DNA of 61,229 nt, filler included, from Hausera hauseri (lineage: Eukaryota), in NCBI GenBank assembly GCA_046269625.1. It is 10 parts of 10 records of this genome, joined end to end, with 100 filler letters (N's around TTAATTAATTAA, not from the genome) between each part and the next. Parts side by side here need not be neighbours in the genome. Positions count along the whole stretch, not along the records: positions 56,424 to 61,229 come from JBJURY010428696.1; 9 more parts are not named here. One strand, written 5' to 3'. Of this stretch, positions 29,801-61,229 are shown in pieces. A program made the position numbers and the translations under genes. Position 1 is the first letter of the stretch. Each line of letters starts with the position of its first letter. A model generated the notes under the pieces. That model saw only the letters and a list, made by a program, of their open reading frames with translations, ran no database searches and was not told the DNA's origin.

Positions 29801-31076
29801 GGGAAGTCAGTATCAAAAGTACTTTCGTGAAATTCAACACCATTTTGGATGATGAAGGGATACTAAGATCAAGTAGTAGACTAATCACAACTTCCTGGTT
29901 AAATTGGGAGCAAAAGTATCCCATAATTCTATCTGCGAAGAGTTTTCTAACGAAGTTAATCATAGAAGACGTTCATTTGAACTTACAACATTTAGCGGGA
30001 GTCAATCACCAAGTTTCCGAGTTAAGTAATAAGTATTGGTTCCCCAGAATGAAAAAGCTAGTCAAAGCTTATCAAAATTACTGGAAGGTATGTAGGAGGG
30101 CGAATGCAAGAGGAATACATACAATAGGAGCTCCATTACCAACGTTTAGGACACGACTACCTCTTAAAGCTTTTGACAAAGTGGGATCGATTTCGCTTGG
30201 CCAGTGAAAACACGACAGAGACGGGGACAAACTCAAGAGAAAAGGTATATCTGCTTAATCACGTGTCTACTCTGTAGGGGTATACACGTTGAGATGTTAG
30301 TCGGGTTAGATATGGATTCCTTCTTAAAAGCTCTGAAACGCTTCATGAGCAGGAGGGGGAGACCTTCGTTGATAATCTCCGGCAACGGGCGAACGTTCAT
30401 TGGAGTAAATAATGAGATATGCGAGTTCCAAATCGACACGTATACCCTTAAAAAGGAACTCAAGGATACAGAAATAAGGTGGATATTCAACCCCCCTGCC
30501 GCTCCTCACTTTGGAGGCGTGTATGAAGTAATGGTTAAATCAGTAAAAAACTCACTAAATAAATTATTTCCGGAAGCTTCCGTGACGGATGAAGAATTAG
30601 GGACATTGCTGATAGTAATTGAAGGGATAACCAACAATCGACCATTAATAAGAGCTATTGACGAGTGTAAGAATGATATCGTCTTATCTCCTAATCATTT
30701 CATAATAGCCGGACACAACGGGGAAATCTCTTCGGAGTTGACAGGGATTAGGAATAGTAGTTTGGCTGACAGATGGAGATATATACAAAAATTAGGGAAG
30801 GAATACTGGGATTGTTGGAGACATGAACTTTTGAGAGAATGTAGAATTGAAACCTGGGGACAAATTATGGTTGTTAGAGAAAAATGAAAAATTTAACCAC
30901 TGGCCCGTCGCAGAAATTACAAATATATTCCCTGGGACAGATAACGTGGTGGAGATAAAACTTAATGGGGAACTTTACAAAAGACCGGTGAATAGGATGT
31001 GTAAAATTGGGAACAATTAGATTGGATAGAAATTGAAGAAGGGTCGACAAACCGGATTACCCAAGGAGGGGGGGAA
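26899..31076 (+). mobile_element. BEL/Pao retrotransposon copy 3 (decayed, 5' truncated) with tandem CCCH fingers
   Basis: Starts NCKYSH..RICKYFEKGRCRYGKDCKFLH, then LLDDAST, TPLGW, KCRIVFDA, YMDD, FDPLG, FCDAS, PHFGGVYE. PPT at 31063-31076. Confidence 0.93.
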
Positions 31077-35100: not shown

Positions 35101-36770
35101 GACAGATATGATACCTGTCGACGTTTACTTTTTCCATGAAATATATTTCAGGCACCGAAAATCTAGTAGCGGATTTTCTTTCGCGGTCGGTTAACTCAAT
35201 TACAATTTAGCCACTTTTCTCCTCTGAGGTCCTGAGAAGCAATCGGCCATCATCTGACATTCTCCAAGCTTTTAAATCTGTTGAAATCATCGATGGCATT
35301 GCTTATGACACTTCTAACTCGACCAACAAAAGGATCATTCTTGCTTCATCGCTACAAAAAACAGCTTTCAACCACTTTCACTCTTTTCATCATCCAGGTT
35401 CAAAAGCCACATTTTGCCTACTGCAACGCCACGTTGTATGGCCAACTATGCGTACAGATATACATATCTGGGTCAAGGGATGTGCAGCATGCCAGCAATA
35501 CAAGGTGCACAAACTCCTAAACCACCACTTTACCACTTCCCTTGTACGTCCCGTTTTGACACTGTGCATTTGGATCCTGTCGGCTTTTTTCCGTCCGACA
35601 ACGGCTATCAATACATCTTATCCATGATGGATCGTGCTTCCCGCTGGCCTGAAGCCGTTCCACTTCGATCAACCAACACTGACTCAGTAGCAGACGCATT
35701 TATCAAGATATGGGTCAGCCGTTTTGGTTCACCACGTCGCATCATAACGTACAAGGGTCCGCAATTTGAAGATGACTCTTTAAATCTCTAGTAAAGCACT
35801 TGGAAATAGCCCACTTCCATACGACACCGCACCATCCCCAAGCAAATGGCTTTCTTGAGAGATTCCATCGCATCATGAAGATTTCTTTAAAAATTTTTGC
35901 AACCAACAATCGTAATTGGACCTCGATTCTTCCTCTTGTCCTACTTGGTTGGCACAACACGCCATCCATTACCACAGGTTGTGCCCCGGCTGAAGCTCTC
36001 TTTGGGACGCCAATTCGTGCACTATTTGAGCTTTCCAATCTGGATGAAAGTCTATCAGATGAAGTCATTCGTGCAGCACAGTCCCACTTTGTAGAGGTAA
36101 ACTCAAACGCATTCTGCCGTCTTATAAACAAAGACAAATCTTATATCCCAGAGGACATATACTCAGCCAAGTTTGTATAGCTGAAGGATCCGTTATCTTC
36201 TGGTTTTCGGCCTCAATACGTTGGATTTTACAAATTACTCAATCTTTCTTCGCACACTGTTACTGTTTTACGCAAGGACCAACCCCATAATGTACACATT
36301 TCTAATCTTAAGCCAGCCTTCTTCATTTATGATGATTAGGATAACAGCATTGTTTCAAATCCCAACTCTAACTTCGTCACCCTCAAGCCATCATCCAATT
36401 TCCTTGATGATTTTAATCCTTCGCAGCCATCACTATCGCGTGACGACCAATTCTCTGCACTTCCGTCATCATCCAGTGCTCCTTCACCATTTGCTTTTCC
36501 ATCATCGCCTGCACATCCACTAATCATTTCACCTTCATCGCAGAATTCGCTGCTATCTCCAATCTCGTCTTCGTTGCGTGATCCTTTTCCGTTTTTAACT
36601 TTTTCTCCACCTTCACCTCTTCATGAAACATCCTCCAGCACCACAAAATCCGCAGTATCTTACTTTCAAACGACTCCACAAGTACCAGTAACCTCTAACA
36701 GATCACGTCATGTGGCGTTTAGCACCTACAGAGGAGAGAGAAATTCATAGATGGAGTCCAACGTCTAACA
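32119..36770 (+). mobile_element. Ty3/Gypsy retrotransposon, CsRn1/Kabuki-like (gag-PR-RT-RH-IN), decayed
   Basis: Gag with Cx2Hx9Cx3C fingers, FLIDSGA, YRPCGDY, MPFGL, YIDD, TTDAS, TDHKPL, RWPEAVP, HPQANGFLERFHR. Confidence 0.92.
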
Positions 36771-37710: not shown

Positions 37711-40480
37711 ATGGAAAATTTTGTTCTCTATCATGAAATTTATAAGATGTAATGACTGTGTACAAAGGGAGAAAGAAATTAACGATAACGTACGTCGCCG
37801 TGTCGTGCATTGACAAAAATCAGCGAATTAAAGTCACAAATCATGTGAGAATTGTGTTTGAGTTGGACAACAAACACGTTGTTAAATTCTACGAATGGTA
37901 TGAAACGAGTAATCATTTATGGCTGGTGACGGATTTGTGTGTCGGCGGCAGTTTGCAGCAGATATTAAGTGAGGACGGCAATTGGCCAGAGAGTTCAGTA
38001 AGGCATTTTGGTGTACATTTGGTTCGTGGTCTGCATTACATTCACTCGTGTGGATTAATTTTTATCCATTGGACTCCGACTAAGATTGTATTAGACGGAG
38101 AAGGCATTTTAAAATATTTCGATTTCTCCGATTCCAGAAAAGTCGATGAAGATTATGAAGAACTAGTTCAGCGGTTTTTCAGCGGTCTTAGTATTGAATT
38201 GAAAGACGTTGAGGAGCTATTTGATTGTCGTCGACCAACTCCATACATAGCACCGGAAATACTCAACGGAAGTCAGCCGGGATTTTTGGGCTGGGTTGCA
38301 TATTTTATGAAATGTTCACAGGCTGTGCTCCGTTTAGTGGACGTGATGAGAGTGAGATGATACAAAACATCCTCAACAATCCCTTCTTAATACCAAAAAT
38401 GCAAGGATCACGAATGTGTGGTAGAGCTTCCTCAGAATTTGATGATTTACTAGAGAAATTGCTGTATAAAAATGTTGACAGTCGGATTAATATGTTTGAT
38501 TTATGTCGTCATCCATTTTGGCAAGGTGCTCTTTTGGATCTATCACAGCAAGCTAAGGCAATTTCCGCTTTCATGACTTAAGAGAAAGTCGTTCGACCGA
38601 AAACCATATCCGAAGACCAAGACGGATCTAGTAGCACCGTGGACGATGTAAGTTTCACTCTGCATCTCGGCTCACGAGCAACTGATGTCAATGAATCGTC
38701 GACAAATCGAAATAAACGCAATAAATTCCAACTCGAACCTCAGGAGAAAATTATTCAATTGTCGGAAAATGCAGAATCCATCGGCAAACAGGAAATATTC
38801 ATTCGCATTGCGAGTTGCACGGCTTTTGAACCCATTCGTTGGCAGATTGATGACTATGCTCGAATGATGAAAGACGGTCGATTGAAATTCAACGCAAAAC
38901 TAATCGCATTACGCCGTTTTCCATTGTCAAGTTTCGTGGCTTACGGAAGCCAGAGACAAACATTTGAAACAGCTCGAAACATCATTAAAAGCCATAGAGA
39001 AGGGGCCTCCAAGCCAGAAACGACTTTACATGATTAATTATTTGGGTCAAATCTCCATGGCACCCGAAGTGTCTACCTTCCTCATTGAGGCTAATTTACC
39101 AATGGAAATCTGTCGACAGATAAAATCATCGTCTAGCCAAGAACTAATAGTTCGATTATGTCAATTGCTAGCCATAATTGTTAATTTCAGTCCACAAGTA
39201 GAACCGAATTTGTATGACGAAATGCTCCTTGTGTTGGCCGAAATACTGAGAGATCAATTTTGATGTACTCGTGTAAAACTGGCATGTCTCACCGTGTTAA
39301 GGGCAGTGTTACTGAAACATGCCCAGTGCACTGAAACGTCTGATGTTTCTCAATCTCAAATACCGACATTAGGACTCTGTGCTACTCTTCTTCATCGATG
39401 TCTCTATCGTTCAGAAGACGTATCTAGGAATCTCGCAGCAGCTCGAACCATAGAAATCGTTGCACAATTCCCGAAATGTCCACTGACAAATCTCATCACA
39501 TCATCTGAAACCATGCAGCAGTTGTACACCGTTTATAAACATACTAGTTTAGACCTACTCAAAACGAGCTCCGTAGTTGCATTATCTCGTCTCACTCATG
39601 TTGACGCGACGTTATTTTGTAATCTCATCGAAAAAACTGGAACCCAAGGGCTTTTAAAAAATCTTCATGTTGCTCTGTTGTCAGTTCAAAAAGCCATTTT
39701 AGAAATGTTCACCATTGCTGTGCTTGCCCAACAAAATTCACCGGTTATTCTTAAACTTATCCAGGATGCAAATTTCATCTTTATCATAATGAGGTTACTT
39801 GAAACACCAGCTGTTGTTGTTTGAGCGAAAGTGTTTCTACTTCTTTTGCTTATTTGCAAATGCGAAATATCTCAACTTCGTCCAGTAACTGATAATCGTC
39901 TGGTGTTGTATTTGAAACGGGAGCTCAAACGGACGAACGTCGGCGGCACCGCGAACAGCACAGGATTGGTGGAAACTTGTTTGAAACTCTGGAGAGCATT
40001 TCTGGCAACACATGCTGTTCCGACAATCTTATCCGAAACATGTATTTCACTCCAAGCAATTCAGGGCCGTAAACATCCATCGTCTGCTCAAATGAAGGCA
40101 TTGAGAGCCATTATGCATTTATTAGAAAGCATATCTAGCTTGAGTCTCTCATCATCTCTTCGGGGTTACCTCCTTTCTCAGTCCTTTTTTCAATCCCTTG
40201 GTGATCTAATAGCCCATGCTATTCGATTGGATGCTGATCAAATCGCTCTCGGAACTGACATTTCTCCACAATTCATGTGCGCCGTTTTGTCACTTGTTGA
40301 GACAGCATGCCATACTGATGAAACACCCAGTCTCTTATCATTCATTTTCGTCCCATTGGCCACTCTCAGACATCAGCACCAATCCTGATGTTCGTATCAC
40401 TGGTCGTAAACTCTGCAATGATATTATACAATCATTGGACAGCGATACGGACAATCTCGATACATCTGCCTTGGTTCGAG
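37711..40480 (+). pseudogene. ULK4: Intronless ULK4 pseudokinase copy (kinase plus HEAT/ARM repeats) with stops and frameshifts
   Basis: MENFVLYHEI / VYKGRKK..KVTNHVR..HVVKFYEWYETSNHLWLV..GGSL..PESSVRHFG, followed by helical repeats including GRKHPS. Several in-frame stops and no introns seen. Confidence 0.9.
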
Positions 40481-40481
40481 C

Positions 40482-40870
40482 CACAGATCACGTTCCTGAA
40501 TATTCGGAAATTCTTGTACCTAATGTCGATAATGTAAGGACTGAAACTCTTATTGATACCATTGCCAAACAAGGGAAATCTGTCTCACTGATTGGTGAGC
40601 AAGGAACAGTTAAGAGAGTTATGGTATCGAAATTTATGGCAAAATATAATCCTGAATCTCATGTTTTTAAATCTTTTAATTTTTCATCTGCTACTACTCC
40701 AGCATTAATTCAGCGCACAATTGAAAGTTTTATTGAGAAGCCAGTAGGCACAACATTTGGGCCGCCGGCTGGTAAAAAATTGTCAATCTTTATTGATGAT
40801 ATAAATATGCCGTTGATAAATGAGTGGGGTGATCAAATTGCAAATGAATTCGTCCGTCAAACATTGGAAG
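40482..40870 (+). pseudogene. DNAH5: Axonemal outer-arm dynein heavy chain (DNAH5/DNAH8-like) AAA3 fragment fused to ULK4
   Basis: [83 protein letters not shown]. Confidence 0.88.
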
Positions 40871-41859
40871 TCAATCATTTGACCACTCGGGAAAGTAGCA
40901 ATGAACTGTCATCACATTATCGCAACAGTGGTGAACATACCATATCAATGTCCTACACCAAATCTGATAAAACTTTTACTAGTTACAAACTGTTGTGTCA
41001 TTTTGTTGTCGAACGTTTAACACAGACTTTCGATTATGTAATGGCTTCTTTTATTCGATTGATCGTTAGATCTCGATTTCACAAACGAAAACAAATTATC
41101 CAAGGATTATTTCTTCAATAAACAGTTCCTAGCATAATGACGAAAGAGATCAACGTCCTGATGGTGTCCACGGATATTGCAATTGTCATTGAAATTCAGG
41201 ATGGCATAACCAGTAGTGATATGTCTAATATCACTGTGAACACAACTGATAACGTCTTACTGATAATCCCTATATCGAGTATGCTAGATGAATTACAAAA
41301 GAAACAGGCCGAACAGAACAAAGAACTGGAAAAAACATTTGAGATGTGGCCAAATTCTACATCCAGGACTCAGATATTCAAACACAGGTGGGTGAAATTC
41401 TTTTTATTGATTTATGCCCACCGGTGCGGCCGCATCCTTTGCATTTGCAAATCCTTCATATCTCCCATCCTTTTTCACTTTAAAAGGTTCTTTAGCTCAT
41501 TATCTTTGCACATTCCTTTACTCCATTCATCACTTAACACCGCTATCCCGACTGCACGCCCATATCTCTTGTTAAGACTGAATCAAACCGCACAAGCATT
41601 TTACCATTCTCCTGGAATTGCTTCGCTGCAACTCTCCTTCCTTATTTTTAATAACAATAAACACATAACGACCATTAAGGTTCCACTGAATACCACGGCG
41701 TAGCTACTATACACCTCTCTATCCTCCTCACTCGACACTGCCAATTTCTATTTCACACATCGAGGCATCACTGTACATCCCGTCGACTCACTTTTGTCTT
41801 TTGCATGCCATGAACGTCCACTTATCCATCTTATGCTCAACTTGCACCTCCGGGGTGTA

Positions 41860-42850: not shown

Positions 42851-43324
42851 GGTCAAGCAGTTTCCGGTTTTCTAGCTATATATTTTATTATTAGCGCCAT
42901 ACGGACAGTATTTACGGCACTAGGTAAAGCCTATGGAATACATGCAGCAGTAGGATGCTCATGGAAAATCCTAATAGCGGCAATACCTGCAGTAGCAAGT
43001 TGTTTTCTAGCAAATCACGATGCACGATGTGAAAGGAAGATATTACAGAGGAAAGACATAAAAGAATCCCCGTATAGTATACCTGACGATAATGATGCCG
43101 AATATAGTCAAATGAAAGCAAAGAAACGAGTACCTAGTATCAAACAACTAGTACTAAAGACACGGAAACCGAAGTATAGACAGAAGTTAATAACGGACTT
43201 ACCCCGTCTAGACCCAGTGGACGAATATCATGGGCAAATGTATAATGAACAACCATTAATAAATCCTTCAGCTCCTCGATACGTAGTACATGCAGGATTA
43301 TATCCTACATATGAAGTTCAATAG
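42851..43324 (+). pseudogene. C-terminus (TM region and tail) of a chuvirus-like glycoprotein, in frame with downstream protease
   Basis: Open frame from contig start, not in the ORF track: GQAVSGFLAIYFIISAIRTVFTALGKAYGIHAAVGCSWKILIAAIPAVASCFL.., then a tail containing PSAP. Homologous to 58014-58170. Confidence 0.65.
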
Positions 43325-46300
43325 ATAAAACAAAGTTTTGATGAAAATCTGACCTCCTATAAACGTGAATCTACGTACAGTGTTGACGATAAAAATGAAA
43401 GACAACCACCTCTAAGACCAGAAATAGAAATAGAGGTGAACGGGTATCCTATGACGACTTTACTAGACACAGGATATACAACAACGATAATGGGAAGAAG
43501 CCAATTACCAAAGGAGTTAAAAAGGAAGTTACAAAGACCAACTACCACATTAGTAAACGTAGGAGCATTTGGTACAGAAGAGGAACGCAAGATGATCTTA
43601 GATGCGGAAATTAAGATCGGTGAACAAATGTTGAAACATACCATAAGAATAGCAGATAACTGAACTAACGAAATATTAATTGGATGAAATATATTAAAAC
43701 AGTTGGAGAACGCTTACATAGATATGAAAACGTGTCAACTTAAGATGTTCAGTGAAGATCGTAACTAAGGAATGGTCTCACTAAAAAGAGACATCACAAT
43801 CCCACCACGATCTGAGATAGTAGTTCCCGGAAAAATAGAAAGTCAAAACGTTACCAGAGATTATATATTTTGAACCTTCCCCACAGGTTATGGAAAAATA
43901 TGAAGTTCTAATCGCCTCTCACGTAGACAAGGTTAGAGATGGAAAAGTCCACTTACGAATTTGTAATACAACAAAAAAGAAAAACGATTACGGAAGAATA
44001 CTAGAATGGGAAAAATAACGATCACTGAAGAAATAATGAAAGAAGAAATCTGCTCAGTAATATCAGATGTAGACAAAATAGAAAAGATAATGGCGGAAAA
44101 GCTGAAAAAGAAACTAGATGAAGACAAAAGAAGAAATAAAACCAGGAATATCGACTAGAACAAGAGATTACAAAAATGCGAAATTCTAAGTAAGGAAGAG
44201 AAGGAAATGCTAATTGAATTATTGGAAAAGAATAACAGTCGATTTGCACAAACTGACTATGATCTAGGCACAATGAAAGTAATACAGCACACCATCAAGT
44301 TGAAGGGTGGACAAGACAAGCCAATTAAGAAAAGACCGTATCGATTAGCATACGATAAGAAACAGGAAGCGCGTAAAATAATAAAAGAGATTAGGGAAAA
44401 TAAGATAATTCGACGAAGTTGCTCCCTTTGGACAGCGCCAATAGTGATGGTCAAAAAGAAAGATGGAACTATGAGATTTTGTATAGACTATAGAGTCTTA
44501 AACGAAATAACAGAGACGGATACATATTTTCTATTAAGAATTGATGAGATACTAGATAAACTATACGGATCGACCATATTCACAACCATCGATCTACAAA
44601 AGGGTTATTGGCAAGTGAAGGTCAAAGAAGAAGATAAACCAAAGACAGCATTCGCAATTGGAGAAGGGTTGTGGGAGTTCAACATGATGCCGTTTGGGTT
44701 AAAGAATGGACCGCCAACATTCCGAAGAGAAACAGAACTTCTATAGATGATGTAATAATAGCGTCACCAAACTTTCGACAACATCTAAAGGATCTACAAA
44801 ATTTCTTTGACAGATGTGAAATAATGGGTCTAAAGATAAATTTCAAGAAATGTTTATTTGCTCAAGCAGAGGTAGATTTTCTCAGACATAAAGTGGATAG
44901 ACACAGTGTAAAACCTCAGGACAAGCTCTTAGGAAAAATAAGAGATTTTCCTAAGCCAGGTACAGTTAGAGAATTACGTCAGTTTCTAGGTTTAGCAAAC
45001 TATTACCGAAGATTCATAAAGGATTTTAGCAAAATTGCGAAACATTTGTATGAATTATTACGTGAAGACCTCTAAAAAGGCATCTGGACAAATGAATGTC
45101 AAAAAGCTTTTGAATATTTAAAAGATAGACTATTAACGGCTCCTATGTTAATCTATCCTGATATAACCCAACCATTTATTTTGGCAACAGACGCAAGTGA
45201 TTGTGGAGTAGGAGCAGTATTATCACAGAAGGGCGAAGATGGAAAGGAACACCCTGTAGCTTATGCTTCACGAAAACGTAATAAGCATCAGAAGAAATAT
45301 TCTGTAATAGAAAAAGAGTTATTAGCAGTAATCTTTGCCTTGGAAGTATTTTTACCCCATATTAGTGAAAATAAACCGCTCTTGATTTATACGGATCATA
45401 GACCGCTCCAAAGGCTAAAGCAGCATGAGAATCCAAATAGTACACTACTACGATGGGCTCTAAAGTTGCAACCGTACACATTAAATTTCCAGTATAAGCC
45501 TGGATCGCGAAATGCCAACGCCGACTACCTATCGAGAATACCTTATAAGTCAGAAACAAAGGCAGTAGTCGCAGCCGTATGGAGTATGGATGGATCAGTC
45601 GAGAAAATTAAGGCAAATCAATATGAAAATGTAGAAATAAAGGCCATTAGAAAATACATAAAAGATAAAACCATACCAGTTGACAGAGAGCTAATACGCC
45701 ACTTGGCTCGATTCAGCGAGGCTACGAGGAAAAAGAAGGATTTCTATATTTTATTAATCAAAACGGACCTGCATTAGTAATTTCTAAGAAAAATAGAGCA
45801 GTTTTACTGACCCAGTATCATGATAGATTACTTAGTGGACACCAATCGGCCAATAAAAAACTAAACAAACTAAAACGAAAATATTTTTGTCCCACGATAA
45901 CGAAGGATGTACAGGAATGGTGCGAGAGCTGCAAGCTTTGTGCTACACGGAAAACACAGGATCAAAATTCAAAGCACCATTAAAGGTATGGGACAACCCT
46001 ACAGCGCCATTCGAATTTACCGCCATGGATATAACAGGGCCATTGCCGTTGATACGAAATGGAAACAAATACATTTTAGTCTTCATTGAGTATTTCACTA
46101 GATGGGTTGTTGCTCTACCAATGCCTGATTTAAAAGCAGACACAATCGGTGAGAAATTTGTAAAAAATATAGTATATAATTATGGAGCTCCAATAATCCT
46201 CTTGACCAATCAAGCGTCAAATTTAACTGGAACTGTAATGCAGTCCATATATGACATCATGAAGATATTAAAATTACGATCCACGCCAGGACACCCAGAG

Positions 46301-46900
46301 AATAATGGAATAGTTCAGAGATATATTGGAGATTTAAAAGGGAAATTACAAACGGTAGTAAATACTAGGTAAGACGATTGGGACGAATATATCAATACAT
46401 GTGTTTTCGTAAATCGGACATCGGTTGATGAAGCTACTAAAGAGACACCCTTCTACTTAATGTATTTACGGGGTGCAAGATTACCAATCGATCTAGATTT
46501 TAATGTAAAACCAATTTCACATTTAATGGAAATAGAAGACTATAAGCAATTCATGCAGGAACGCCTTCAGTTAGCACATAAAATGATTGGCGATAACCAG
46601 AAGGATTATAAATTAAAATAAAAAAGTACTACGACCAAAATACCAAGCAGCCTAAAATTAAGATAGGTGACCAAGTAATGCTGTATTCTCCGGCAATTAA
46701 AAAGGGTAAAACGTCTAAGTTAGACCATATAAAGGACCATGTAAAGTAGAAAAAGTAGACTTACCGAATATTTGTTTGAGAAAGAATAATACTTCAGTGA
46801 AAGTCCACGTAAATAGATGTAAACCCTCTGCCAAGGAGAGCGAACTAAGAAAAGGTGAAAAAGAGTCGGTATGTAGCATCAGTGAAAAGGTAATCGAAAT
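42851..46900 (+). mobile_element. Ty3/Gypsy element (G-like tail, PR, RT, RH, IN), decayed
   Basis: LLDTGY, RFCIDYR, DLQKGYWQ, MPFGL, IDD, ATDAS, TDHRPL, AMDITGPLP, HPENNG. Confidence 0.92.
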
Positions 46901-47167
46901 AAGTTCAACAAGTAAACTTCAGATAAAGGAGGTCCTACTACTAATTATTATCTTGTGATAGGACCGGTGACGAATTCGGAAATTGAACGAGCAAAAATAA
47001 GACATGCCATAGCTATACAAGAAGATTTGTTAATGAAAGCTTTACGGTACAAAATAACATATTCAGANNNNNNNNNNNNNNNNNNNNNNNNNNNNNNNNN
47101 NNNNNNNNNNNTTAATTAATTAANNNNNNNNNNNNNNNNNNNNNNNNNNNNNNNNNNNNNNNNNNNN

Positions 47168-50100
47168 TTCTTCACGTGATATTACATCATTGGTCACGTG
47201 GTGTTCTGTGATTGGTCACGTGACGTCATATGGTTTGTCACGTGCAATCTGTGATTGGTCACGTCATTTGTCATATGTTTGGTAAGGAGATTCTTCAAGT
47301 GATATCACATCATTGGTCACGTGGTGTATCTGATTGGTAACATAATGTAATTTTGCTGGTCACGTTATATCTGTGATTGGTCACGGGATTGGTCACTAGA
47401 TTTGTCACGTCATGTCACAGGATTGGTCACGTGATTGGTCATGTCATTTGTCATATGCTTGGTCACGTCATTCTTCAAGTGATATTACATGATTTGTCCC
47501 GTGATATCTCTAATTCGTCACATAATATAATTTCTCCGGTCACGTTATATCTGTGTTTGGTCACGTGATTCTTCAAGTGATAATGCATCATTGGTCACGT
47601 GATGTCTGAGATTGGTCACATGATATCACTTCGCTGGTCACGTTATAATTGTGATTGTTTACGGCATTGGTCACTAGATTTGTCACGTGATGTCACAGGA
47701 TTGGTCACGTGATTAATCACGTCATTTCTCATATGTTTAGTCACGTGATTCTTCAAGTGATATCACATCATTGGTCACGTGGTGTTCTGTGATTGGTCAC
47801 GTGACCTCATATGGTTTGCTACGTGATAATTGTGATTGGTCACGAAATTCGTCATTAGATGTGTCACGTGATGTCACAGGATTGGTCACGTGATTGTTCA
47901 CGTCATTTGTCATTTGTTTGGACACGTGATTCTTTACGTTATATTACATCATTGGTCACGTGATGTGTCTGATTCGTCACATATTATAATTTCGCCGGTC
48001 ACGTTATATTCGTGATTGGTCACGGGATTGGTCACTAGATATGTCACGTGATGTAACAGGATTGGTCATGTGATTGGTCACGTCATTTGTCATATGTTTG
48101 GTCACGTGATTCTTCACGTGATATTACATCATTGGTCTCGTGGTGTTTGTCATTGGTCACGCGACGTCATATGGTTTGCCACGTGATATCTCTGATTGGT
48201 CACGGGATTGGTCCCTGATTTGTCACGTGATGTCACAGGATTGGTCACGTTATTGGCCACGTCATTTGTAACATATTTGGTCACGTGATTCTTTACGTGA
48301 TATTGCATCATTCGTCACGTGTTGTATCTGATTGGTCACATAATATAATTTTGCCGGTCACGTTATGTCTGTGATTGGTCAGCGGATTGGTCACTAGATT
48401 TTTCACGTGATGTCACAGGAAAGGTCACGTTATTGGTCACGTCATTTTTCATATATTTGGTCACGTGATTCTTCACGTGATATTACATCATTGGTCTCGT
48501 GGTGTCTGTCATTGGTCGCGTGACGTCATATGGTTTGCCACGTGATATCTGTGATTGGTCACGGGATTGGTCACTAGATTTGTCACGTGATGTCACAGGA
48601 TTGGTCACGTGGTTGGTCACGTCAATTGTGGCATATTTGGTCACGTGATTCTTTACGTGATATTACATCATCTATTGTGACTTGATGTCTGTGATTGGTC
48701 ACATTATATCATTTCTCTGGTCACGTGAACTCTGATATTGGTCACGGGATTGGTCACTAGATTTGTCACGTGATGTCACAGTATTGGTCACGTGATTGGT
48801 CACGTCATTTGACTCATATTTGTTCACGTGATTTCTCACGTGATATCACATCATTGGTCACGTGGTGTTCTGTGATTGGTCACGTGACGTCATATAGTTT
48901 GCCACGTGATATCTGTGATTGGTCACGGGATTGGTCACTAAATTTGTCACGTGATGTCACAGGATTGGTCACGTGATTGGTCTCTAGATTTGTCATATGT
49001 TTGTTCACGTGATTCTTCACGTGATATCACATAATTGGTCACGTGATATCTGTGATTGATCATGGGATTTGTCACTAGATTTGTCACGTGATGTCACAGG
49101 ATTGGTCACGTGATTGGTCACGTCATTTGTCATATGTTTGACCACGGGATTATTCACGTGATATCACATCATTGGTCACGTGATGTCTGTGATTTGTCAT
49201 ATTATATAATTTCCTCGCTCAAGCGATATCTGTGATTGGTCAAGGGATTGGTCACTAGATTTGTCACGTGATGTCACGGGATTGGTCACGTGATTGGTCA
49301 CGTGATATAACATCATTGGTCACGTCATGTCTGTGATTGGTCACATAATATAATTTCGTCGGTCACGATATATCTGTGATTGGTCACGGGATTGGTTACC
49401 AGATTTGTCACGTGATGTCACAGGATTGGTCACGTGATTGGTCACGTCATTTGTCATATGTTCTTTCTCGTGATTCCTCACGTGATATCACATCTTTTGT
49501 CACGTGATGTTCTGTGATTGGTCACGTGAGGTCGTGTGGTTTGTCACGTGAATTCTGTGATGGGTAACCGGATTGGTCACTAGATTTGGCACCTGATATC
49601 ACAGGATTGGTCACGTGATTGGTCACGTCATTTGTCATATGTTCGTTCACGTGATTCTTCACGTGATATCTCATCATTGCGCACGTGGTGTTCTGTGATT
49701 GGTCACGTGACGTCATATGGTTTGTCACGTGAAATCTGTGATTGGTCACGGTATTGGTCACTAGATTTGTCACGTGATGTCACAGGATTGGTCCCGTGAT
49801 TGGTCACGTCATTTGTCACATATTTGGTCACGTGATTCTTCATGTGATATTACATCATTGGTCACTTGATGTCTGTGATTGGTCACATTATGTCATTTCT
49901 CTGGTCACGTGATATCTGTGATTGATCACGGGATTGGTCACTAGATTTGTCACGAGATGTCACAGGATTGGTCCCGTTATTGGTCACGTCATTTGTCACA
50001 TATTTGTTCACGTGATTCTTCACGTGATATTACATCATTGGTCACTTTATATCTGTGATTGGTCACATTATGTCATTTCTCTGGTCACGTGAACTTTGAT

Positions 50101-51572
50101 ATTGGTCACGGGATTGGTCACTAGATTTGTCACGTGATGTCACAGGATTGGTCACGTGATTGTTCACGTCATTTGTCACATATTAGGTCACGTGATTCTT
50201 CACGTGATATTACATCATTGGTCACTTGATGTCTGTGATTGGTTACATTATGTCATTTCTCTGGTCACGTGAACTCTGTTATTGGTCACGGGATTGGTCA
50301 CTAGATTTGTCACGTAAAATCAGAAGTTTGGTCACGTGATTCGTCACGTCATTTGTCATATGTTTGGTCACGTGATTCTTCACGTGATATTACATCATTG
50401 GTCACTTGATGTCTGTGATTGGTCACATTATGTCATTTCCCTTGTCACGTTAACTCTGTTATTGATCACGGGATTGGTCACTAGATTTGTCACGTGATGT
50501 CACAGAATTGGTCACGTGATGTCACAGAATTGGTCACGTCATTTGTAACATATTTGGTTACTTGATTCTTCACGTGATATTACGTCATTGGTCACTTGAT
50601 GTCTGTGATTGGTCACATTATGTCATTTCTCTGGTCACGTGATATCTGTGATTGTTCAGTGGATTGGTCACTAGATTTGTCACGTGATGTCACAGGATTG
50701 GTCCCGTGATTGGTCACGTCATTTGTCACATATTTGTTCACGTGATACTTCACGTGATATCACATAATTGGTCACGTAATATCTGTGATTGGTCATGGGA
50801 TTAATCACTAAATTTTTCACGTAATTTCACAGCATTGTTCACGTGATTGGTCACGTCATTTTTCACATATTTGCTTACGTGATTCGTCACGTGATATCAC
50901 ATCATTTGTCACGTGAATTTCTGTGATTGGTCACGTAATGTCATGTGGTTTGTCACGTGATATCTGTGATTGATCACGTGATTGGTCACTAAATTTTTCA
51001 CGTGATGTCACAGGATTGGTCACGTGATTGATCACGTCATTTGACATATGTTTTTCCACGCGATTTTTCAGGTGATATTACATCATTGGCCGCGTGATTT
51101 CTGTGATTGGTCACATAATATAATTTAGCCGTTCAAGCTATATCTGTGATTAGACATGGGATTGGTCGCTAGATTTTTCAAGTGATGTCACGTGATTGGT
51201 TCCGTGTATGGTCACGTCATTTCTGACATATTTGGTCACGTGATACGTCACGTGATATCACATCATTGGTCACGTGGTGTTCTGTGATTGGTCACGTGAC
51301 GTCATATGGTTTGTCACGTGAAATCTGTGATTGGTCACGGGATTGGTCACGTTATTGGTCATGTCATTTGTCATATGTTTGATCACGTGATTCTTCACGT
51401 GATATCACATCATTGGTCCCGTGATGTCTGTGATTGGTCACGTGACGTCATATGGTTTGTCACGTGAAATCTGCGATTGGTCACGTGATTGTTCACTAGA
51501 TTTTTCAAGTGATGTCACGTGATTGGTTCCGTGTATGGTCACGTCATTTCTGACATATTTGGTCACGTGATA
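47168..51572. repeat. Satellite DNA, ~180-bp monomer built from ~12-bp GATTGGTCACGT subrepeats
   Basis: The landmark gtcactagat and its variants recur at about 47851, 48031, 48211, 48390, 48570, 48753 and 48934. Confidence 0.95.
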
Positions 51573-54180
51573 NNNNNNNNNNNNNNNNNNNNNNNNNNNN
51601 NNNNNNNNNNNNNNNNTTAATTAATTAANNNNNNNNNNNNNNNNNNNNNNNNNNNNNNNNNNNNNNNNNNNNTGAAAAGCCAGAACTAAGTAAGTTCTAT
51701 TTTGGGACTTCAGCGTTTTACCTTCAACAGAGTCATCTTGCAGCCTGGTTTTGCACAACGGATTTTCCTTTTTAAGAAAAAATGCTCAATTACATAAAAG
51801 TGAAACTCTTCAGTTAACACTACAAAATCCAATTCTCTCCACTCATTGCATAAAATATTATTCTGAAAACAATGTCCTCAACTTTGTAAAAGGATAAGGC
51901 AGCATGATTAAATGTAACCACTGCCTACTATACACTAATCTGCAAATTTGTCCAGTTAATAACCATGTTTGTTCCCTGCATCCTAAAAATGCTTGTAATT
52001 CAATTCAATTAAGACTATTTATTCAACTCCAAAACATCCCAGAGACTATTAGCACTGCACAAAAACATCTACATGCACCTTTGTTCACAAAGCACAATCT
52101 CATTAACTCATAATGTTCTTATGGTTCTTCTTATGCACCCATATGTCCTGTGTGCAATCTCAAGATGTGTAAAGTAGTTTTATCCAACAATTCGTAGAAG
52201 GAAACAGCTCTTAAAATCTAAATAACATTTACAATGTGTAATAAAATCAATTAATCGATTAATCTAAACCAAGTGTTCCTATTTAAAGTGCATTTAAATA
52301 TATTTTTATTTCCTCTATTTTAAATTAAAAGGTTCCTCTTTTTATTTTATTATTTATTTTTTTTTCTTAGTCAAATTGATAAACTAACATTATGGTTAAT
52401 TCTAAGAAGAAATTTTGCTAATTTGTTCAAAATGTGTCATCCAGAAATGCTCAAACTGAACTGGACCTGTTCATGGTGGTAGTTAAATCGCTGAGCTTTT
52501 TATTAAATTTTGAATAGTAGTTTAATTCAGTGTCGTAATTATCCAGCAATGCAGACCTGGTCCTGTTTCTACATCCGCCTTGTAATCTGTCTATTTCTCT
52601 ACTTTGACATCTGTTTTATCTCATTAAAGAATCTATATACCTTTCTCATGATTGTCTATTGTTGATGGATTGAAAATCTACTGTTGCTGTTTTCATCATT
52701 CCCAGTCTGTAGCCAGGTCTCTCGTTTTTGTGTGCAATACTTCATCCGCAATTGTTGTTCACTGTCCCTCCAAACGATACCAGAAGTCACTCGCATTACT
52801 GGGTGCACTCCAGCAGGGGGCGCCGTTGGACAGGTCTAAGAAGACGCATAGGGCTAAGGTTTTTCCCCATGCAAGCTTCATTAAAGTTTCATAAGCTGAC
52901 TTCTCTTCATCTTATATTGTGACGAGCTGGTTCAACACTACTTTCATTAGTTCCTCTATTAATTCTTTAATTTGTAATTAGTTGTTTTAAAGTAATTAAC
53001 GCATTTGCTCATGACTTCCAAGTTATCAATTCTTCCTTAATTTCCTAAATTTGTTTGTTTTGACCTTTCACATTGTCTCAAATTAATTAAGTAATTAAAA
53101 CCAACTTCCCCTCTCAGATCTACCCTGTAGACTGTTGTCCACAGGAGTCCCATTTCTCATTTATGAGCTCCCTACCTGTTGACGTTCACACCTTTTTTAT
53201 GCTCATCCAACCACACACATACACCTAAATAACTAACCCTTCACATACACACACAAACAGCCACACACACAGACCCATGCAGGAGCCACTCACTTCCTGC
53301 CCTCCATAATCATCTAAACCCATGAGTTTTTGTTCCAACATTTTCTTGTCTTTTTTGTTTCCGGCTGTTAAGGCGATGTTTTCTTTTTTTTTTTTTTCTT
53401 TCTTTCCCTCTTCACAGCAGTCGGTCTTATAGGTTGGGACAGAGCCTCACCACTTTCGTGGAGAGACAAACATATGACAGGCCAACTTTCATTCACACAC
53501 ACACGCACGCGACTCAGAACACAGTTATTGACCCCAATAGAAATATTATTTTGTGAAAATGTATGTTGACTCCGTTTCCGTGCAGGAAAGGTATTTTATG
53601 AGTATTCTGTGACTATTTTCATATCATAAAATAACAATAAATATAAAAGTTATTTGTTATTATTATTTGTTTATTTATTTTTTATCGATCGGCGTACGTT
53701 TTACGTTTCAGCGTTTTATTCTTTCATCTCATCAACAGTCCCGCTCTCGCTTAATAAAACCTCTAATTTTAAGCGAGTCTAATATGACACTGTTTTAAGC
53801 GAATTACCAATTTCGCAAGATAACAGTAAACTTGGTCTCTAGGGTTACAGGAGCTGGCGGCGAATACGTCACTATATTCTAAAACCCCGCTCCCCCTGCC
53901 CGGAACTTCGTCAAGTTCCGGTTGGCGCGACCACTGCGTAATATTCTGGGACTGGTTTCACTTATTTCATTTATTTAATCTCTTTGCGCGCTTCCCGAAG
54001 CTAAAACGTACTTTTCCACTATTTATATGAGTTCAACACACTGATAGGAATTTGCCTATAAAAGCCCAATTACAGAGTTTCGGTTAAACAGGAATACTGC
54101 GTACCTTTATTTTGAAGTTCTGGCGCCAGTAAGGTCAGTGTGAAGAACCCAGCTTCCCTTCCTGCCTGTCGGATCAAACC

Positions 54181-54200
54181 ATCTCGGTGGATGACCTCCA
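54181..54200 (-). promoter_or_regulatory. Retroviral PBS, tRNA-Gln-like (imperfect)
   Basis: Minus strand ..GCTACA-ATT-TGGAGGTCATCCACCGAGAT, compared with the Gln PBS TGGAGGTTCCACCGAGAT. Confidence 0.7.
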
Positions 54201-54203
54201 AAT

Positions 54204-55382
54204 TGTAGCGTTGTCGTCTCTTCTCCGCCAGAGTTCGTTGTTGGCTTGAAAATGAACGAAGTAGGAAAGAAAAGCTTCACTTAATAGATGACAGAGTCGC
54301 TGTTAAAGTTCACACGTTATATTTAATAGTCAATAATCAAATAGTTACAGAATACATCTTTAGGAATACAATTTTGGTTAGTAATTATTGCAAAAACAAA
54401 ATAAAAGTTATTGATGCATTATTAAATGATTTGAAGGCGCCTTCATTAGACTATACGACCTGCAACAGTTGTTATTGGGTTGTGCTGCTGAGCTGCTGCT
54501 GTTTCTGCTCTGGTCTGGTCTGCTTCTGCCTGCCTCTTCTTCTTGGTGAGACGCACTCAAAGCTCTTATAACCTTACATGGGTGCAGCCCCTTTTCCAAA
54601 ACAGCACACGAATCTACAACCCCCCAAAGATGTTCCTTTGTCTAACTTTCAGAATTTCTTCTGAGTCCTGTTAATTTCTCATATCTTCATATATCTTAAT
54701 ATCTCCTATGAAGCATATCAATGTCATACTTATAAAGTGTATGTTTGTTTTTATTCAAAGGGTTTCACTATAATTAGAATACTTTAATCATTTATCAAGT
54801 TAATCTACTTTTATATAATTTCATTTGCTAAAGATCAGCTTACACCATAATATTTAATTCATCTAACAATTTGGGTACAGGTTGGACACTTATCTGTTAA
54901 AGAGAGCTTTGTTCAGCAATGGAGCTGGTCTGCTCAACACACCCACTAAGTAACTTCAATAACTCATTCACTACATACATATTTTTATACTAAATAAATT
55001 GACTAAGTGAATCTCTCAAGTTTCTTTCTTGATATTAAGTGTTCCTCAGGCTGTAAAACAGCGTCATAAATTGACCCCTGTCAATGAAGGAATGTGTAGT
55101 GTCCTGCAACCCCCCAGGGTTTCCATAGCAACACAGCTTCTGAACCAATCAGAGAGCTTATACCTTTAAACCATTACCAGATGGCCGGAAACACACACAC
55201 CCACCTTTTGGGTCAAAACTTCTCTGCAGAACCTCCTTGCAATTCTTACAAACCTGTTAACACATCTTATTCATGCAAATCTATGTTACCAATTAAAAAC
55301 ACAGAGTAAGCAGATCACCTGAAAAGACACAAACATAATATAAAGCATCCATCATTACAAAAATAGATTTTATTTCACAACA
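54204..55382 (-). repeat. ERV LTR (~1.18 kb)
   Basis: Begins TG after PPT AAAGGGGGAA (55384-55393) and ends CA before the PBS. TATAAGAG near 54570. Confidence 0.8.
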
Positions 55383-55447
55383 ATTCCCCCTTTGGACCTA
55401 ACGACCTTAGGTCCACACATAAAAATAAAATCATAAAGTCAACACCA

Positions 55448-56323
55448 TCACTCATGCGGTGCAGACATCTGAAAATCATTCAGATCGTATCCTTTCTGCA
55501 GAAATAACTGTCTAAACACCTCTGGGTCTTTCTTCTCCAGGGTGGACGTGATAAGTCTCACAGCTAATGATCTCATGCAAGGAATACAACAACATCCACA
55601 AGTTACCAGAATTGCAATAAAAATAGACAAAGACACTATCAAAGATATAATCACTTGTCTCCAAGGGCCAAAAACTCTCAAGAGCCAATCTTCAAAAGGG
55701 TTGTCAATACCCGAATGACTTTGCATCTCATTAGAGAGTGTCCTAAGGCCTTCCAAGGCTCTAGTGACCTTACCATCAGGAGCGGTGTTGTTTGGGATGA
55801 AACTACAACAGAGATCTCCAAACATACTACAAACACCACCTCTCTCTGCCAACAACATATCAAGCGCCATTCTGTTCTGCACTGCCATCAAAGATGTAGG
55901 AGCTAACTGTTCAGCTAATCCTTCTACCGCATCTCTCGTCAAATTGGACAGACGCATAACATTATAATGTATATAATTTATTCTGTCCACATTTTTGTTT
56001 GGAGTAACTGGAAAAAGTGCTGAGATAATAGGTATATTTTCAAAACCAGCTGCCACTTGGTCTGCCAGTTTGTGTTCATTAGGTACGCCTCGAGGTATTC
56101 CTATGGCATCAATGTAAGTGGGCGAGCCTACAGTGGGATCAAAGTTATGTGTAGACCTCTTTGACCTAGACATAGTGGTGGTGAGATTCAAATGCTCCAA
56201 TCTAGGGCCTATCAGTGTAAGCGGGGCAGCTAATCGCACCATGGCACAAAGTCCAACGGTGTTGTCCAAGATGCGAGTTAGCAGCCTTTTGTCACCACAA
56301 AAGTAATATAGTCCTGCTCTGAC
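55448..56323 (-). CDS. env: Endogenous retrovirus envelope (end of SU plus TM), teleost gamma/epsilon type
   Basis: Furin site RSKR, immunosuppressive domain VQNRMALDMLLAERGGVC, CX6CC motif, TM helix and Cys-rich tail. Confidence 0.93.
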   Translation of the reverse strand, partial: VRAGLYYFCGDKRLLTRILDNTVGLCAMVRLAAPLTLIGPRLEHLNLTTTMSRSKRSTHNFDPTVGSPTYIDAIGIPRGVPNEHKLADQVAAGFENIPIISALFPVTPNKNVDRINYIHYNVMRLSNLTRDAVEGLAEQLAPTSLMAVQNRMALDMLLAERGGVCSMFGDLCCSFIPNNTAPDGKVTRALEGLRTLSNEMQSHSGIDNPFEDWLLRVFGPWRQVIISLIVSLSIFIAILVTCGCCCIPCMRSLAVRLITSTLEKKDPEVFRQLFLQKGYDLNDFQMSAPHE

Positions 56324-57806
56324 NNNNNNNNNNNNNNNNNNNNNNNNNNNNNNNNNNNNNNNNNNNNTTAATTAATTAANNNNNNNNNNNNNNNNNNNNN
56401 NNNNNNNNNNNNNNNNNNNNNNNGAGAGATAATACGAACTTACTTAAAGTTGTTGTTGTCGACCATAATGCTACCACAAATAAATTAGTGAATAATAACT
56501 TAGAAATGAAACATGATTTTAATTTGTCGCTCGTTTAAATTTTTGAGTCTTATTAGCTGTATATATATCTAATTTTCATTTCATTGATATTGTAATTTAT
56601 TCTAGAAGACTGATTGGTTTTATGTATAATTTTGAATTAAATAAGTTTGTATTATAGAAGGAAATTTAATGCTTTGTCGATTAATTGTTGAACATATATC
56701 TTGAATTGATAAAGGTGAAGAGTAAGGTACATTATATATCAGTACATGCATCATCAACCGATACAGAATTGAAAAATGAAATCCCTCATATCATACTTAA
56801 ATGTATATGTATGCGTGAAGGGTAAAGTCAATTTAATAGTAATATACAAAAATACCTCTGATTGAAGGCATGTAGTAAAAGATGGCCTCTAATGGAATAA
56901 TGCTTATCTGAAAAACACGAGCAATATTACCAACATGAGGTCAGTGAAGCATATACCTTTTCAAATTTTTAACTTTGACCTTAATGGGTATTTATTACAT
57001 GATAATACGAATTAATAGATTTTATGAATATATATGAATTTTATGAATGTAGAACTATAATTGAACTCGAGTAAGTCATTCAGTTAAAGCAGAAAGGTAA
57101 AGTATACCATTTTCAAATGTAAGATTGAAAAGTAAAACTATAGATACTGTAATTCCTATTGTCGAAGTAAATGTTGGTTTCGAGAGTGTGTCTGGTAGTT
57201 CATCAATTAAATCTCATTCGTCGTAAATCAATTGTATTGAAGATAAAAGTAAGATGCGTTATCTATCAATATATATCTCTTTACCCATATAGAATTAATA
57301 AGTGAAATTTTAAATGACGCCGCAATTATCATACTTTTGTATGAATATATATTTATAGTTGAATATACGTATAATAACCTTTAAGGATACGTAATGAGAG
57401 ATGACCTTTGATAGAATAGCATTTATTTGGAAGATATGAATAGTGTTATCAATGTCATTTCTTGGTCCAAAAAATATGTATTCCTTTTAAGCATTACCTT
57501 AGGATTAATAACAATGACTTCAAGTTATATGCTCATTTTGGGTATCAACGGGATTAATCCCTAGTTACTTTAGTCGCTGTTGAACCAGTTATAACTTTCA
57601 AGAATATTGCCATATAGACATGATAGTTTGAGAACATGCTCGAACAGAAGATAGATAACTATATGATCCGCCGTATACTCACAAAACCTTTAGATAGGAG
57701 AACGGTACGGTCTAAGATGAAAGAGGTTAACAGTAAAACAAAAGCGGACATAAAATTTATATCAATTTATATGTTAAGTACTACTTAAGGTTAATAATAA
57801 TAACCC

Positions 57807-58415
57807 CTGTACTATCAACACGGGGAGATCGAAGCCTTCAGAGAATTTCTCATTTTTCCACGACAACGAACACATGAATTAAACCGAGCCATGGCCTCTG
57901 TGGTAGACGATACTCGATACGAAGCCAAATGGGAATCTTTACTGGGTGTTAACCACTATCAGAGGGTAACTTCCGAGATATTATACATGATTTGAGGAAG
58001 ATTTCTAATTTTTGGGCAAGCCGCATCCGTATTTTTGGCTATCTATTTTTTGATCCAATTAGTCAATGCAGTGATTCAAGCTGTTATAAACGGATACGAA
58101 ATATTCACGCTAACAGGATTTTTTTGCAAGATTTTAACTGCAATTATCACACCCTTCGGGAAAATGCTAAAGGCTTACGAAGGAAATTTTTGGAAAAATC
58201 ATGTAGAACGACATGTCCGATATTATAACCGTAAACGACGAGGAAGGCCCTCGATTTTTAACAAACGCAAAAACAAAAGGATAATAATGAGGAAAGACGA
58301 CCCAGATGATAAGGAGCCTAAGGGAGGAGAAATGAATTCTAGAATGAGGATGCAGAAAGTGGACTCAGCGAAAAACACGCCATTACCAATCATGCCTACC
58401 ACAGCACCAATATAG
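57807..58415 (+). pseudogene. C-terminal part of a chuvirus-like glycoprotein (membrane-proximal region, TM, tail)
   Basis: One frame: LY..GEIEAFREFLIFPRQRTHELNRAM..SLLG..YMI*GRFLIFGQAASVFLAIYFLIQLVNAVIQAVINGYEIFTLTGFFCKILTAII. The TGA at 57993 sits at a probable Trp codon. Confidence 0.7.
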
Positions 58416-61229
58416 AAAGATTGCGACCACAAATCAATAGTATCATGTAAGTCAGAAATCTATCAGAAACCTATCCAATACGAGGATCCGTACGAAAAAA
58501 CAAAACAATACGGNNNNNNNNNNCTAATTGAAAACAATTACGGAATATTATATTCAAAAAGAATACCGCGGCACATAGAACCAAAATCAACCATTTTGGG
58601 AAACCAAAAGTTGTGTTCGACTTCGAGTGCACTACGACATGAACCGCTCTTCGACAGCCGCCTTACTGAAATAGCAAATAATGACTTGTACCGGAATGGA
58701 AAACTAAGACAATTAAGGCAGGATATCATTTCATCACCAGAAATTACGATAAATGGACATACAATCTCTACGATAAAATGGTCAAAGATAGTGTCAAATT
58801 GCTACGAAACAGTAGCGGAAGGAAGACCCTTAGCTAAAATACACATCGAAGACTGGGAAGTGTATGCATTAATCGACACCGGATCAGAAAAATCATTTAT
58901 AAAATACGAGTCTATACCAACCACATTGCGAGACCAGTTATGTCCACCCGCATCATCAGACCCGGGCAGTGTAGGAGCATTTGGACAAGTATCGAAGCCA
59001 AAATTTAAATGGATTCCTACGGTTTACATGATGGGTCAAGCGTTGCAACACGAATTTGCCATAATGGATCAGTTAACAGACGATGTATTACTAGGTTGCG
59101 ATATAGTGAAACAGATACCAGGTATGGCGATAGACGTACACAATGGAAAATTAGTTGAGCTCGAACCAGTAAAAGGGAAAAAAGTAATAAAAGAAAGGAA
59201 ATCAGACGATGTATGGATTTCGGTAGATGAAGACATTCCGCCCAGAACCGAATTGATAATTTTCGCACAGATCAGACAGGACGAGGATTTGCCAGTATAC
59301 TTTGAGCCTCAAGAGAATATCGATCCGAACCTCATGCTTAGCAATATATTATGTAGAGTAGTGACGGGACGAATAACTATTAGATTAGTAAACAATGCTT
59401 CAATTCCCGTGCTATTACATGCTAACACTACTCTAGATCACACGTGCAGAGCATCGGCGTTAACAATCGAGGAAAAACCTTATAAGTGTGCTGAATTTCC
59501 ACCTCACGTAGAAACCAAATTTTTGCCAGAAGCGTATTGCAAATTTTGTGAATTATTGTGTAAATACCGTTCAGTCATCGCACAAAATGAAGAAGACATT
59601 GGCAGGGCAAAAATATTAAGACTAACGATTCCGTTAAAAAAGAAACCGGGTTCAAATGACGAGATCGACCTAGAAGAACAGAAAATGCCTAAATGGTATC
59701 CGCCTCCTCACTCATTGAGACCAGAGATAAGTAAAGAAGTAGAGCGAATGTTAAAGGCCGACATAATTCGACCAAGCTACCTATCATGGTACTCGGCTAT
59801 ACTTATGGTTAAGAAGAAAGGAACTACAAAATATAGGTTTTGTATAGATTATCGAGCATTGAACACACTGATGATGAAAGATTCATTTCCATTACCATCA
59901 GTAAAAGAGGCATTAGATAGACTATCAGGAGCAAAATGGTTTATCACTATCGACTTACAATTGGGATACTGGCAAGTGGAAATTGAAGAAGAAGATGGAT
60001 ACAAAACAGCGTTCAAAACACACGATGGCGTGTACGAGTTTAATGTTATGCCTTTCGACATCACCACAGGACAGCTATTTTCACTAGAATGATGAATAAG
60101 ATGCTCATGGGACTTGATCACGCTTTTGCGTACTTAGATGACGTGATGATAGCATCGAAAACGGAAGAGGAACATTTAAAGGAAATTGAGGATACACTCA
60201 TGCGATTAGAACAGGCAGGGTTGAAATTAAATCCAAAGAAATGTAAATGGGCAAAAAATGCCGTATCATACCTTGGACACATAGTTGGTGAAGGAGGATC
60301 AAAACCGGATAAATCCCTGCTGGATAAAATATCTGATTGTATGGAACCACAGAATCAAAAAGAACTAAGGCACTTGTTAGGCCTATGTGGGTATTATGCC
60401 ACTTACGTTTCAGACAACTCAAAAATAAATGCGCCGCTATATCGCTTACTCAAAAAAGGGACTAAGTGGAGATGGACGGAAGTGGAACAGAAAGCATTCG
60501 ATGAACTAAAGAACATTCTGACAAGCGAACCAGTTTTAAGATATCCAGATTTTAACTTACAATTCATCATTAAAACGGATGTAAGTAAAGAAGGGATAGG
60601 ATACGAATTGGCTCAAAAATGAGGGGACGAAGAATTAGAACATCCAATAGCCTATGGAGGACGTTCGGTAAAGAAAGCGGAAAAGAACTATTCGGCTACC
60701 GAACTAGAAACGTTAGCAGTCAAAGAAGCATTACGGCACTTTAACGTCTACGCATATGGGCAAAAGATTATCATAGTAACCGATCGCAAAGCAGTTACGA
60801 CATTGAAAGGACGAACTGATAATCCAACTTGTAGGCTAAATCGTTGGATAGAGGAATTCTCACGAAATAACATTGAATTTCAATACAAACCGGGTAATAA
60901 ACATGTCGACGCGGATTCAATGTCAAGATTAAAAACAAAAACAAGTGCAATCACTACGCTAAAGAGACCAAAACTCGAACAACTCACTGAATAACAAAGA
61001 ACCTTGATTTCGGATAAGACAACTAAAATTACAGTTGAGCAAGCTAAAGATATGGTTATTCAGAAAATTATCGGATTCGTAAGAAATGACGAAATACCAA
61101 AGGGACGGCAACTGAAAAAGCGCCTACAGAAACACGGACGTAAATATTACGTATCGAATCAGGATAATATTTTGTATTACGAGCGAAAAGAAAGAAGATT
61201 AATATTTATTCCAAAAGTATTACGTATCG
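57807..61229 (+). mobile_element. Ty3/Gypsy element (G-like region, PR, RT, RH; truncated before integrase core)
   Basis: ALIDTGS, YRFCIDYR, DLQLGYWQ, YLDD, KTD.S, YSATELE, HVDAD.MSR. Confidence 0.92.

Follow-up and report, generated by a model that had tools for sequence, protein, structure and literature searches.

A truncated Ty3/gypsy retroelement copy with a chuvirus-like fusion glycoprotein region ahead of protease and reverse transcriptase

Retroelements in which an envelope gene precedes pol have been described before. According to the parts of an errantivirus survey considered here, in the errantiviruses of Nematoda, Bryozoa and Platyhelminthes the only ENV is of the HSV/gB type and the gene order is GAG-ENV-POL (Chary & Hayashi, eLife, PMC13524379). 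The same parts list nine flatworm GAG-ENV-POL elements, from the free-living Macrostomum, Prostheceraeus and Schmidtea, and, for 50 genomes of cestodes, monogeneans and trematodes, give no annotated element, three of these genomes having a single ENV match in an ENV-POL search (PMC13524379). They also record the order ENV-GAG-POL in two mites, the chuvirus-like glycoprotein of mosquito BEL/Pao elements beside a gypsy POL in 114 elements, and a nematode case, credited to Sacco et al. (2022), of ENV before POL in a metavirus (PMC13524379). The Anakin elements, going by the portion of their description used here, are mosquito BEL/Pao elements with a chuvirus-derived glycoprotein (Dezordi et al., 2020, PMC7642597).

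The window, i.e. the whole 61,229-nucleotide stretch of DNA analysed, is made up of short contigs and nine linkers (44 N, 12 bases and 44 N), sequences on opposite sides of a linker not being genomic neighbours, and it includes two gaps of 10 N. PF24664, protease, RT and RNase H were found in the same order in two unrelated contigs, the final one (56424-61229), in which copy A is located, and an internal one (42851-47067) containing copy B (Table 1). It is considered highly probable that the copy A segment is a dead Ty3/gypsy copy of a multi-copy family, cut inside env, with the env gene lying ahead of protease, RT and RNase H, and that intact members would likely encode a single Gag-Env-Pro-Pol polyprotein, as their relatives do. 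Copies A and B are further members of the published env-before-pol gypsy type, and the layout itself is already known. The initial annotation had proposed an independently derived, new architecture; this could not be upheld, as GAG-ENV-POL gypsy elements with a gB-type env have already been published for three phyla, on the evidence of those sections of the survey (PMC13524379).

The resemblance to the GAG-ENV-POL errantiviruses lies in a putatively class III-type env located 5' of a Ty3/gypsy pol in the same element, in the multi-copy state and in a probable flatworm host, the comparison being by description only and with part of the source (PMC13524379). Near-identical intact copies are a further errantivirus trait; the family found here is multi-copy and both copies in the window are broken. 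Like Anakin, these are LTR retroelements carrying a chuvirus-like glycoprotein. Unlike Anakin, as characterized in the available portion of its description, they have a pol that is Ty3/gypsy-like rather than BEL/Pao by its matches and domain set, and an env closer to fused polyproteins than to the PF24664 proteins recovered as stand-alone proteins (PMC7642597). Of the Ty3/gypsy pol order (protease-RT-RNase H-integrase), all four domains are present in copy B and the first three in copy A, where the window ends (61229) ahead of the integrase core. Both copies nest among LTR-element Pol proteins, mostly with RT_RNaseH and Integrase_H2C2/rve, and the Ty3/gypsy assignment was made by this nesting, without GyDB profiles or a BEL or copia outgroup. 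The NERVs of Sacco et al. (2022) reportedly have a continuous gag-env-pro-pol ORF, and are said to occur in nematode hosts and to form a NERV RT clade. No named NERV sequence was present among the matches and, in contrast to the NERVs, a nematode host is unlikely here, given an axonemal DNAH5 piece in the window (see below).

Table 1. Coordinates of the two element copies and the flank of copy A within the window.
Feature	Position	Strand	Basis
Low-copy AT-rich flank, outside the element	56424..57790		Depth; no Pfam family in six frames
Copy A env, C-terminal quarter (PF24664, putatively class III-type)	57807..58415	+	PF24664 match, hydropathy, phmmer relatives
Copy A TAG, private to this copy	58413..58415	+	Other family sequence without a stop there
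10-N assembly gap	58514..58523		Sequence
Copy A retroviral-type aspartyl protease	58818..59117	+	RVP E 7.6e-6
Copy A RT, split over two frames near 60070-60095	59808..60286	+	RVT_1 E 1.6e-12 and 9.3e-15
Copy A RNase H	60632..60862	+	RT_RNaseH E 6.9e-20; stop at 60620-60622 just before
Copy B env anchor and tail, cut by contig start; TAG 43322-43324	42851..43324	+	PF24664 E 1.9e-6
Copy B protease, RT, RNase H and integrase; numerous frameshifts and stop codons	43415..46297	+	RVP, RVT_1, RT_RNaseH, rve

The motifs of a membrane-protein C-terminus that had been noted from position 57807 are present in the translation of a single plus-strand frame. Only one stop had been counted ahead of the gap, whereas two were found, the residue left in brackets at 57993-57995 being a TGA; the other is the TAG at 58413-58415. 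Together with the frame change in RT near 60070-60095 and the stop at 60620-60622, these lesions mean that copy A is dead. Within 58524-60089 lie the protease and the initial half of RT (E 1.6e-12), and the proteins of relatives align along copy A to 61225-61228 by tblastn. A Gag domain had been reported as absent between env and protease, in agreement with the Pfam search, which detected no capsid or CCHC family there.

A translation of 57807-58412, with X at the stop, matched PF24664 (Monjiviricetes_fusion) over 57813-58172 with an E-value of 8.6e-13 and 47.6 bits, the cut-off of the profile being 27 bits. The reading of this tail as a chuvirus-like fusion glycoprotein, which depended on some similarity to viral fusion glycoproteins, is thus borne out. 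The match spans profile positions 479-600 of 653, i.e. the last quarter only, and the remnant consists of the membrane-proximal region, a membrane anchor (about 58005-58090) and a basic cytoplasmic tail, with a 19-residue hydropathy peak of 2.17. On a profile of the env of relatives the tail scored 87 bits (best of 500 shuffles, 2.8). The full env of a relative was nearest in the Atlas to PF24664 clusters (0.95), followed by rhabdovirus G and herpes gB (range 0.91-0.95), which serves as a lead only, as does the best value of 0.85 obtained with the 90-aa anchor region. These neighbours are as expected of a gB-like class III fusogen, and the env of copies A and B may, as a lead, be regarded as one. 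PDB sequence searches with env gave no relevant match, a word-indexed search with the env tail retained none of 204 candidates, two IMG/VR scans gave no match, and there were no Rfam matches. Between anchor and protease, YPx(1-3)L/I occurs in 7 of 13 relatives, with PSAP in the env tail of copy B and a PTAP-like stretch in that of copy A; these motifs, which we take to be of the ESCRT late-domain kind, are leads without a chance control.

Contigs of two public runs, X1 and X2, were aligned onto 56424-61229, the summed contig depth not being equivalent to copy number. This depth was 5-24 over 56424-57711 compared with 1461-65767 over 57712-61229 in X1, and 0-4 compared with 24-720 over the same intervals in X2, with high depth unbroken from env into pol in both runs. 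The env tail and pol of copy A are thereby shown to belong to one high-depth repeat family, and the glycoprotein is not free of retroelement pol, as that of a solo chuvirus glycoprotein EVE is. In X1, 10776 contig pieces aligned to the copy A contig, only 391 of them at a level of at least 99%. The same profile shows that the low-copy flank meets the repeat family inside env and that copy A begins abruptly at about 57790. Because copy A is cut there, it lacks Gag as well as some three quarters of env, and their joint loss fits a 5' truncation. Upstream of 57807 no Pfam family was detected in six frames, and no further env was matched by our own env profile. Searching with the N-terminal regions of five relatives by tblastn gave no Gag match upstream of copy A and two weak ones elsewhere (E 0.09 and 0.88). 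Long direct repeats were absent from both element contigs and from the two metagenome loci, L001 and L002, introduced below.

Copy B has the same env-before-pol order as copy A, and its protease (RVP E 4.9e-9) is in frame with env with no gap between them. Its env scored 26.6 bits with PF24664, just below the cut-off of 27, and an iE of 4e-12 with our own env profile. Downstream of the integrase no env match was found up to the contig end at 47067 (Pfam, three frames of 46373-47067). As the tails of the two copies are only 28% identical and their RTs 43%, copy B represents a separate family; in env there is no nucleotide match between them.

A phmmer search of 1.84 billion proteins with the copy A tail returned 20 matches, of which 18 had PF24664; the remaining two, WD40 proteins, were false and were dropped. 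Ten of these 18 proteins continue from env into an aspartyl protease, three of the ten also having RT, and a single chain with env, protease, RT, RNase H and integrase is found in the cluster members P0114 (4844 aa) and P0117 (3003 aa). Two related loci were identified by a JGI metagenome scan. L002 consists of one 3703-aa ORF that contains two CCHC motifs, env, protease, RT, RNase H and integrase; the ORF of L001 (3426 aa) is open at its 5' end and has the order of L002 from env onward. On the Gag side of the GAG-ENV-POL order, a CCHC ahead of env was found not only in L002 but also in P0095, P0099 and P0107 (three of the nine relatives checked by pattern, several of which are 5'-incomplete), copies A and B being cut inside env. 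In the relatives a single ORF thus comprises Env, protease, RT, RNase H and integrase, preceded by a CCHC Gag wherever the sequence extends to the 5' end. Five of them have a hydrophobic stretch just ahead of env (read by eye). An env-before-pol order in a Ty3/gypsy element, as initially annotated for copy A, recurs in copy B and in these relatives, and the Env-Pol polyprotein suggested at the same time is a likely product, judging from the relatives' single ORFs.

The metagenome polyproteins P0095, P0098, P0099, P0100, P0114, P0117, L001 and L002 resemble the window copies in having Env followed directly by protease/Pol in one ORF, and share with them the same membrane-proximal motif. Their env tails are only 25-32% identical to those of the window copies, and their RT-RNase H identity reaches 45% with copy A and 53% with copy B. 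All of them group with both copies in RT-RNase H except P0099, which is without RT. Unlike the window copies, several contain additional proteases and a long extension beyond the integrase; in L001 and L002, both with such additional protease domains, this extension has hydrophobic stretches. Further downstream, each of these two loci has a distinct ORF for an RNase_T-type exonuclease, at 10617-12107 in L001 and 12085-13473 in L002 (E 1.4e-5 and 0.0011, respectively). P0095, an animal-type retroelement polyprotein, is filed under a Flavobacteriaceae MAG as a hypothetical protein and is likely a binning contaminant.

The env-bearing polyproteins were originally recovered via the env tail, and in a comparison of 118 proteins the same polyproteins ranked first against the protease, both RT pieces and the integrase of the window copies, but not against a gypsy RT at 33982 that served as control. 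An RT phylogeny, which had been called for at the outset, was built from RT-RNase H (36 rows, 415 columns; 26 of 47 other rows used) and placed both copies and seven env-before-pol relatives in one group (99/96). Under a mixture model this group was recovered at 90/92, with copy A on a long branch and only the eight-row set without copy A starred. A shorter tree, built from the RT 3' part and RNase H (280 columns) with 40 of 59 non-redundant other rows, left copy A without a placement, and the group required three changes. P0052 (1838 aa), an env-before-pol polyprotein with a Borna-G-like glycoprotein match, is a weak sister of the group (92/68). Env and pol, independently pointing to the same relatives, are shown by these comparisons to descend together. 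In the env-tail tree, both copies fell outside a 16-row polyprotein group and outside a 4-row free-env group, so that they form a divergent arm. The env of copy A is closer to the env of retroelement polyproteins than to any free glycoprotein found, and a fresh capture from a chuvirus is therefore not indicated. That env belongs to the same Ty3/gypsy element as pol, as was initially held, accordingly agrees with shared depth, order and relatives alike.

Two other explanations turn on the short interval between env and protease. In one, env would be a chance neighbour, i.e. a solo chuvirus glycoprotein relic or a foreign env joined to an unrelated pol by a misjoin at the N gap. There is indeed a gap between env and protease in copy A, and no contig crosses it letter by letter: one X1 contig links 58453 to 58532, the intervening letters not being given, and loose contig ends of X1 and X2 extend beside the gap on both sides with letters unlike those of the opposite side, on which basis the true gap at 58514-58523 is probably longer than 10 bases. 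However, that X1 contig does join both sides, copy B has the same order without any gap, and env and pol independently indicate the same relatives; a misjoin was rejected on these three grounds and is taken to be exceedingly improbable. Of the same-frame continuity from env to pol that had been claimed across the gap, the order is supported by the joining contig, but the frame would be kept only with a gap of exactly 10 bases. The other explanation is a programmed leaky stop, by which Env (or Gag-Env) would be made in excess and Pol by TAG readthrough. Readthrough of a conserved TAG was considered since an in-frame TAG separates the env tail from protease in A and B alike. When X1 and X2 contigs were aligned on 58360-58612, however, the codon at 58413-58415 was without a stop in 1394.1 of 1402.8 summed depth in X1 (22 contigs) and in all 48.2 of 48.2 in X2 (10 contigs). 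As other family copies have no stop there, the TAG is private to copy A and is its own lesion, not a readthrough signal of the family, and readthrough of this TAG was rejected for family A. The env frame of copy B, moreover, has nine stops in 631 codons and the frames of the relatives are open, so that a leaky stop is rated very improbable.

More weight was given to the possibility that the families are truly Gag-less (Env-Pol only), with capsids borrowed from another element, or that env stands at the very front. Neither copy has a remnant of Gag upstream of it in the window, both branch outside the seven relatives, and gene order can vary, as the two mites with ENV-GAG-POL illustrate in the sections of the survey referred to (PMC13524379). 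Nevertheless, both copies are cut inside env (A by unique flank, B by the contig start), which leaves the upstream part invisible, and their closest relatives carry a CCHC Gag before env; a Gag-less family is very unlikely. In its fullest form, copies A and B would be a deep-branching, heavily amplified env-before-pol gypsy arm in a parasitic flatworm that has dropped Gag and starts with the fusogen, giving an Env-Pol polyprotein only. This too is very unlikely, the loss of Gag being without support. Where the initial annotation had placed Gag either upstream of env or nowhere, the upstream position agrees with the relatives, and absence is unsupported, copy A being simply cut inside env.

For the preferred Gag-Env-Pro-Pol polyprotein, a route of synthesis can be proposed. 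In intact members Gag would be made first, in the cytosol, after which an internal hydrophobic signal just before Env would direct a class III ectodomain to the lumenal side of the ER. Transfer would halt at the membrane anchor, so that the tail and the enzymes behind it (protease, RT, RNase H and integrase) would remain tethered on the cytosolic face. Cleavage by signal peptidase and by the element's own protease would afterwards release Gag and the enzymes. Capsid, enzymes and fusogen would in this way be brought to the same membrane, from which an enveloped particle able to move between cells could bud. Copy A is capable of none of these steps. A single ORF of this kind raises the question of how a particle is assembled when capsid, fusogen and enzymes are produced in equal amounts and threaded through a membrane, for which an intact natural member is better suited than the copy A relic. 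The two families are divergent and lie outside the known-sequence relatives found here, one of them being strongly amplified.

Clues to the host came from other contigs of the window. Nematodes are without motile cilia, and the window has an axonemal DNAH5-like piece (E 1.8e-58), so the host is probably not a nematode. The best of 320 matches to this piece was from Trichobilharzia regenti (75%; proteins of only 74-238 aa, most of them unnamed), and the host is probably a flatworm. The contig 51673-56323 has a retroviral env C-terminus at 55451-56323 on the minus strand (TLV_coat E 1.5e-8) and a CpG ratio of 0.54, compared with 0.85-1.19 elsewhere; it may derive from vertebrate host DNA, suggesting a parasite. 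From the trematode best match and this vertebrate-type retroviral contig, a parasitic flatworm is given about an even chance. Should the host be one, env-before-pol elements would be extended to a group in which the survey, in the parts considered, annotated none among 50 genomes (PMC13524379).

Several further features were observed in the window. At 37746-41121 (plus strand) an intron-free, stop-ridden ULK4-like piece (E 1.1e-43) and, directly after it, the DNAH5-like piece together look like a two-parent retrocopy, and an intron-free, broken MORC-like piece (Morc6_S5 E 3.9e-7) is located at 10968-12296 (minus strand). A TBP-like piece (E 3.4e-14) was identified at 20146-20631 (plus strand), and an organellar/viral-type DNA polymerase B (E 4.4e-5), probably a Polinton relic, at 25378-25827 (minus strand). 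The entire contig 47172-51571 is a satellite with a 12-base unit and higher-order periods of about 180 and 359 bases. BEL/Pao-like relics were recognized by eye from the ORF list at 1-8289, 16515-19732 and 28045-30887, and the env-less gypsy relic that was used as the control is found at 32243-35791.
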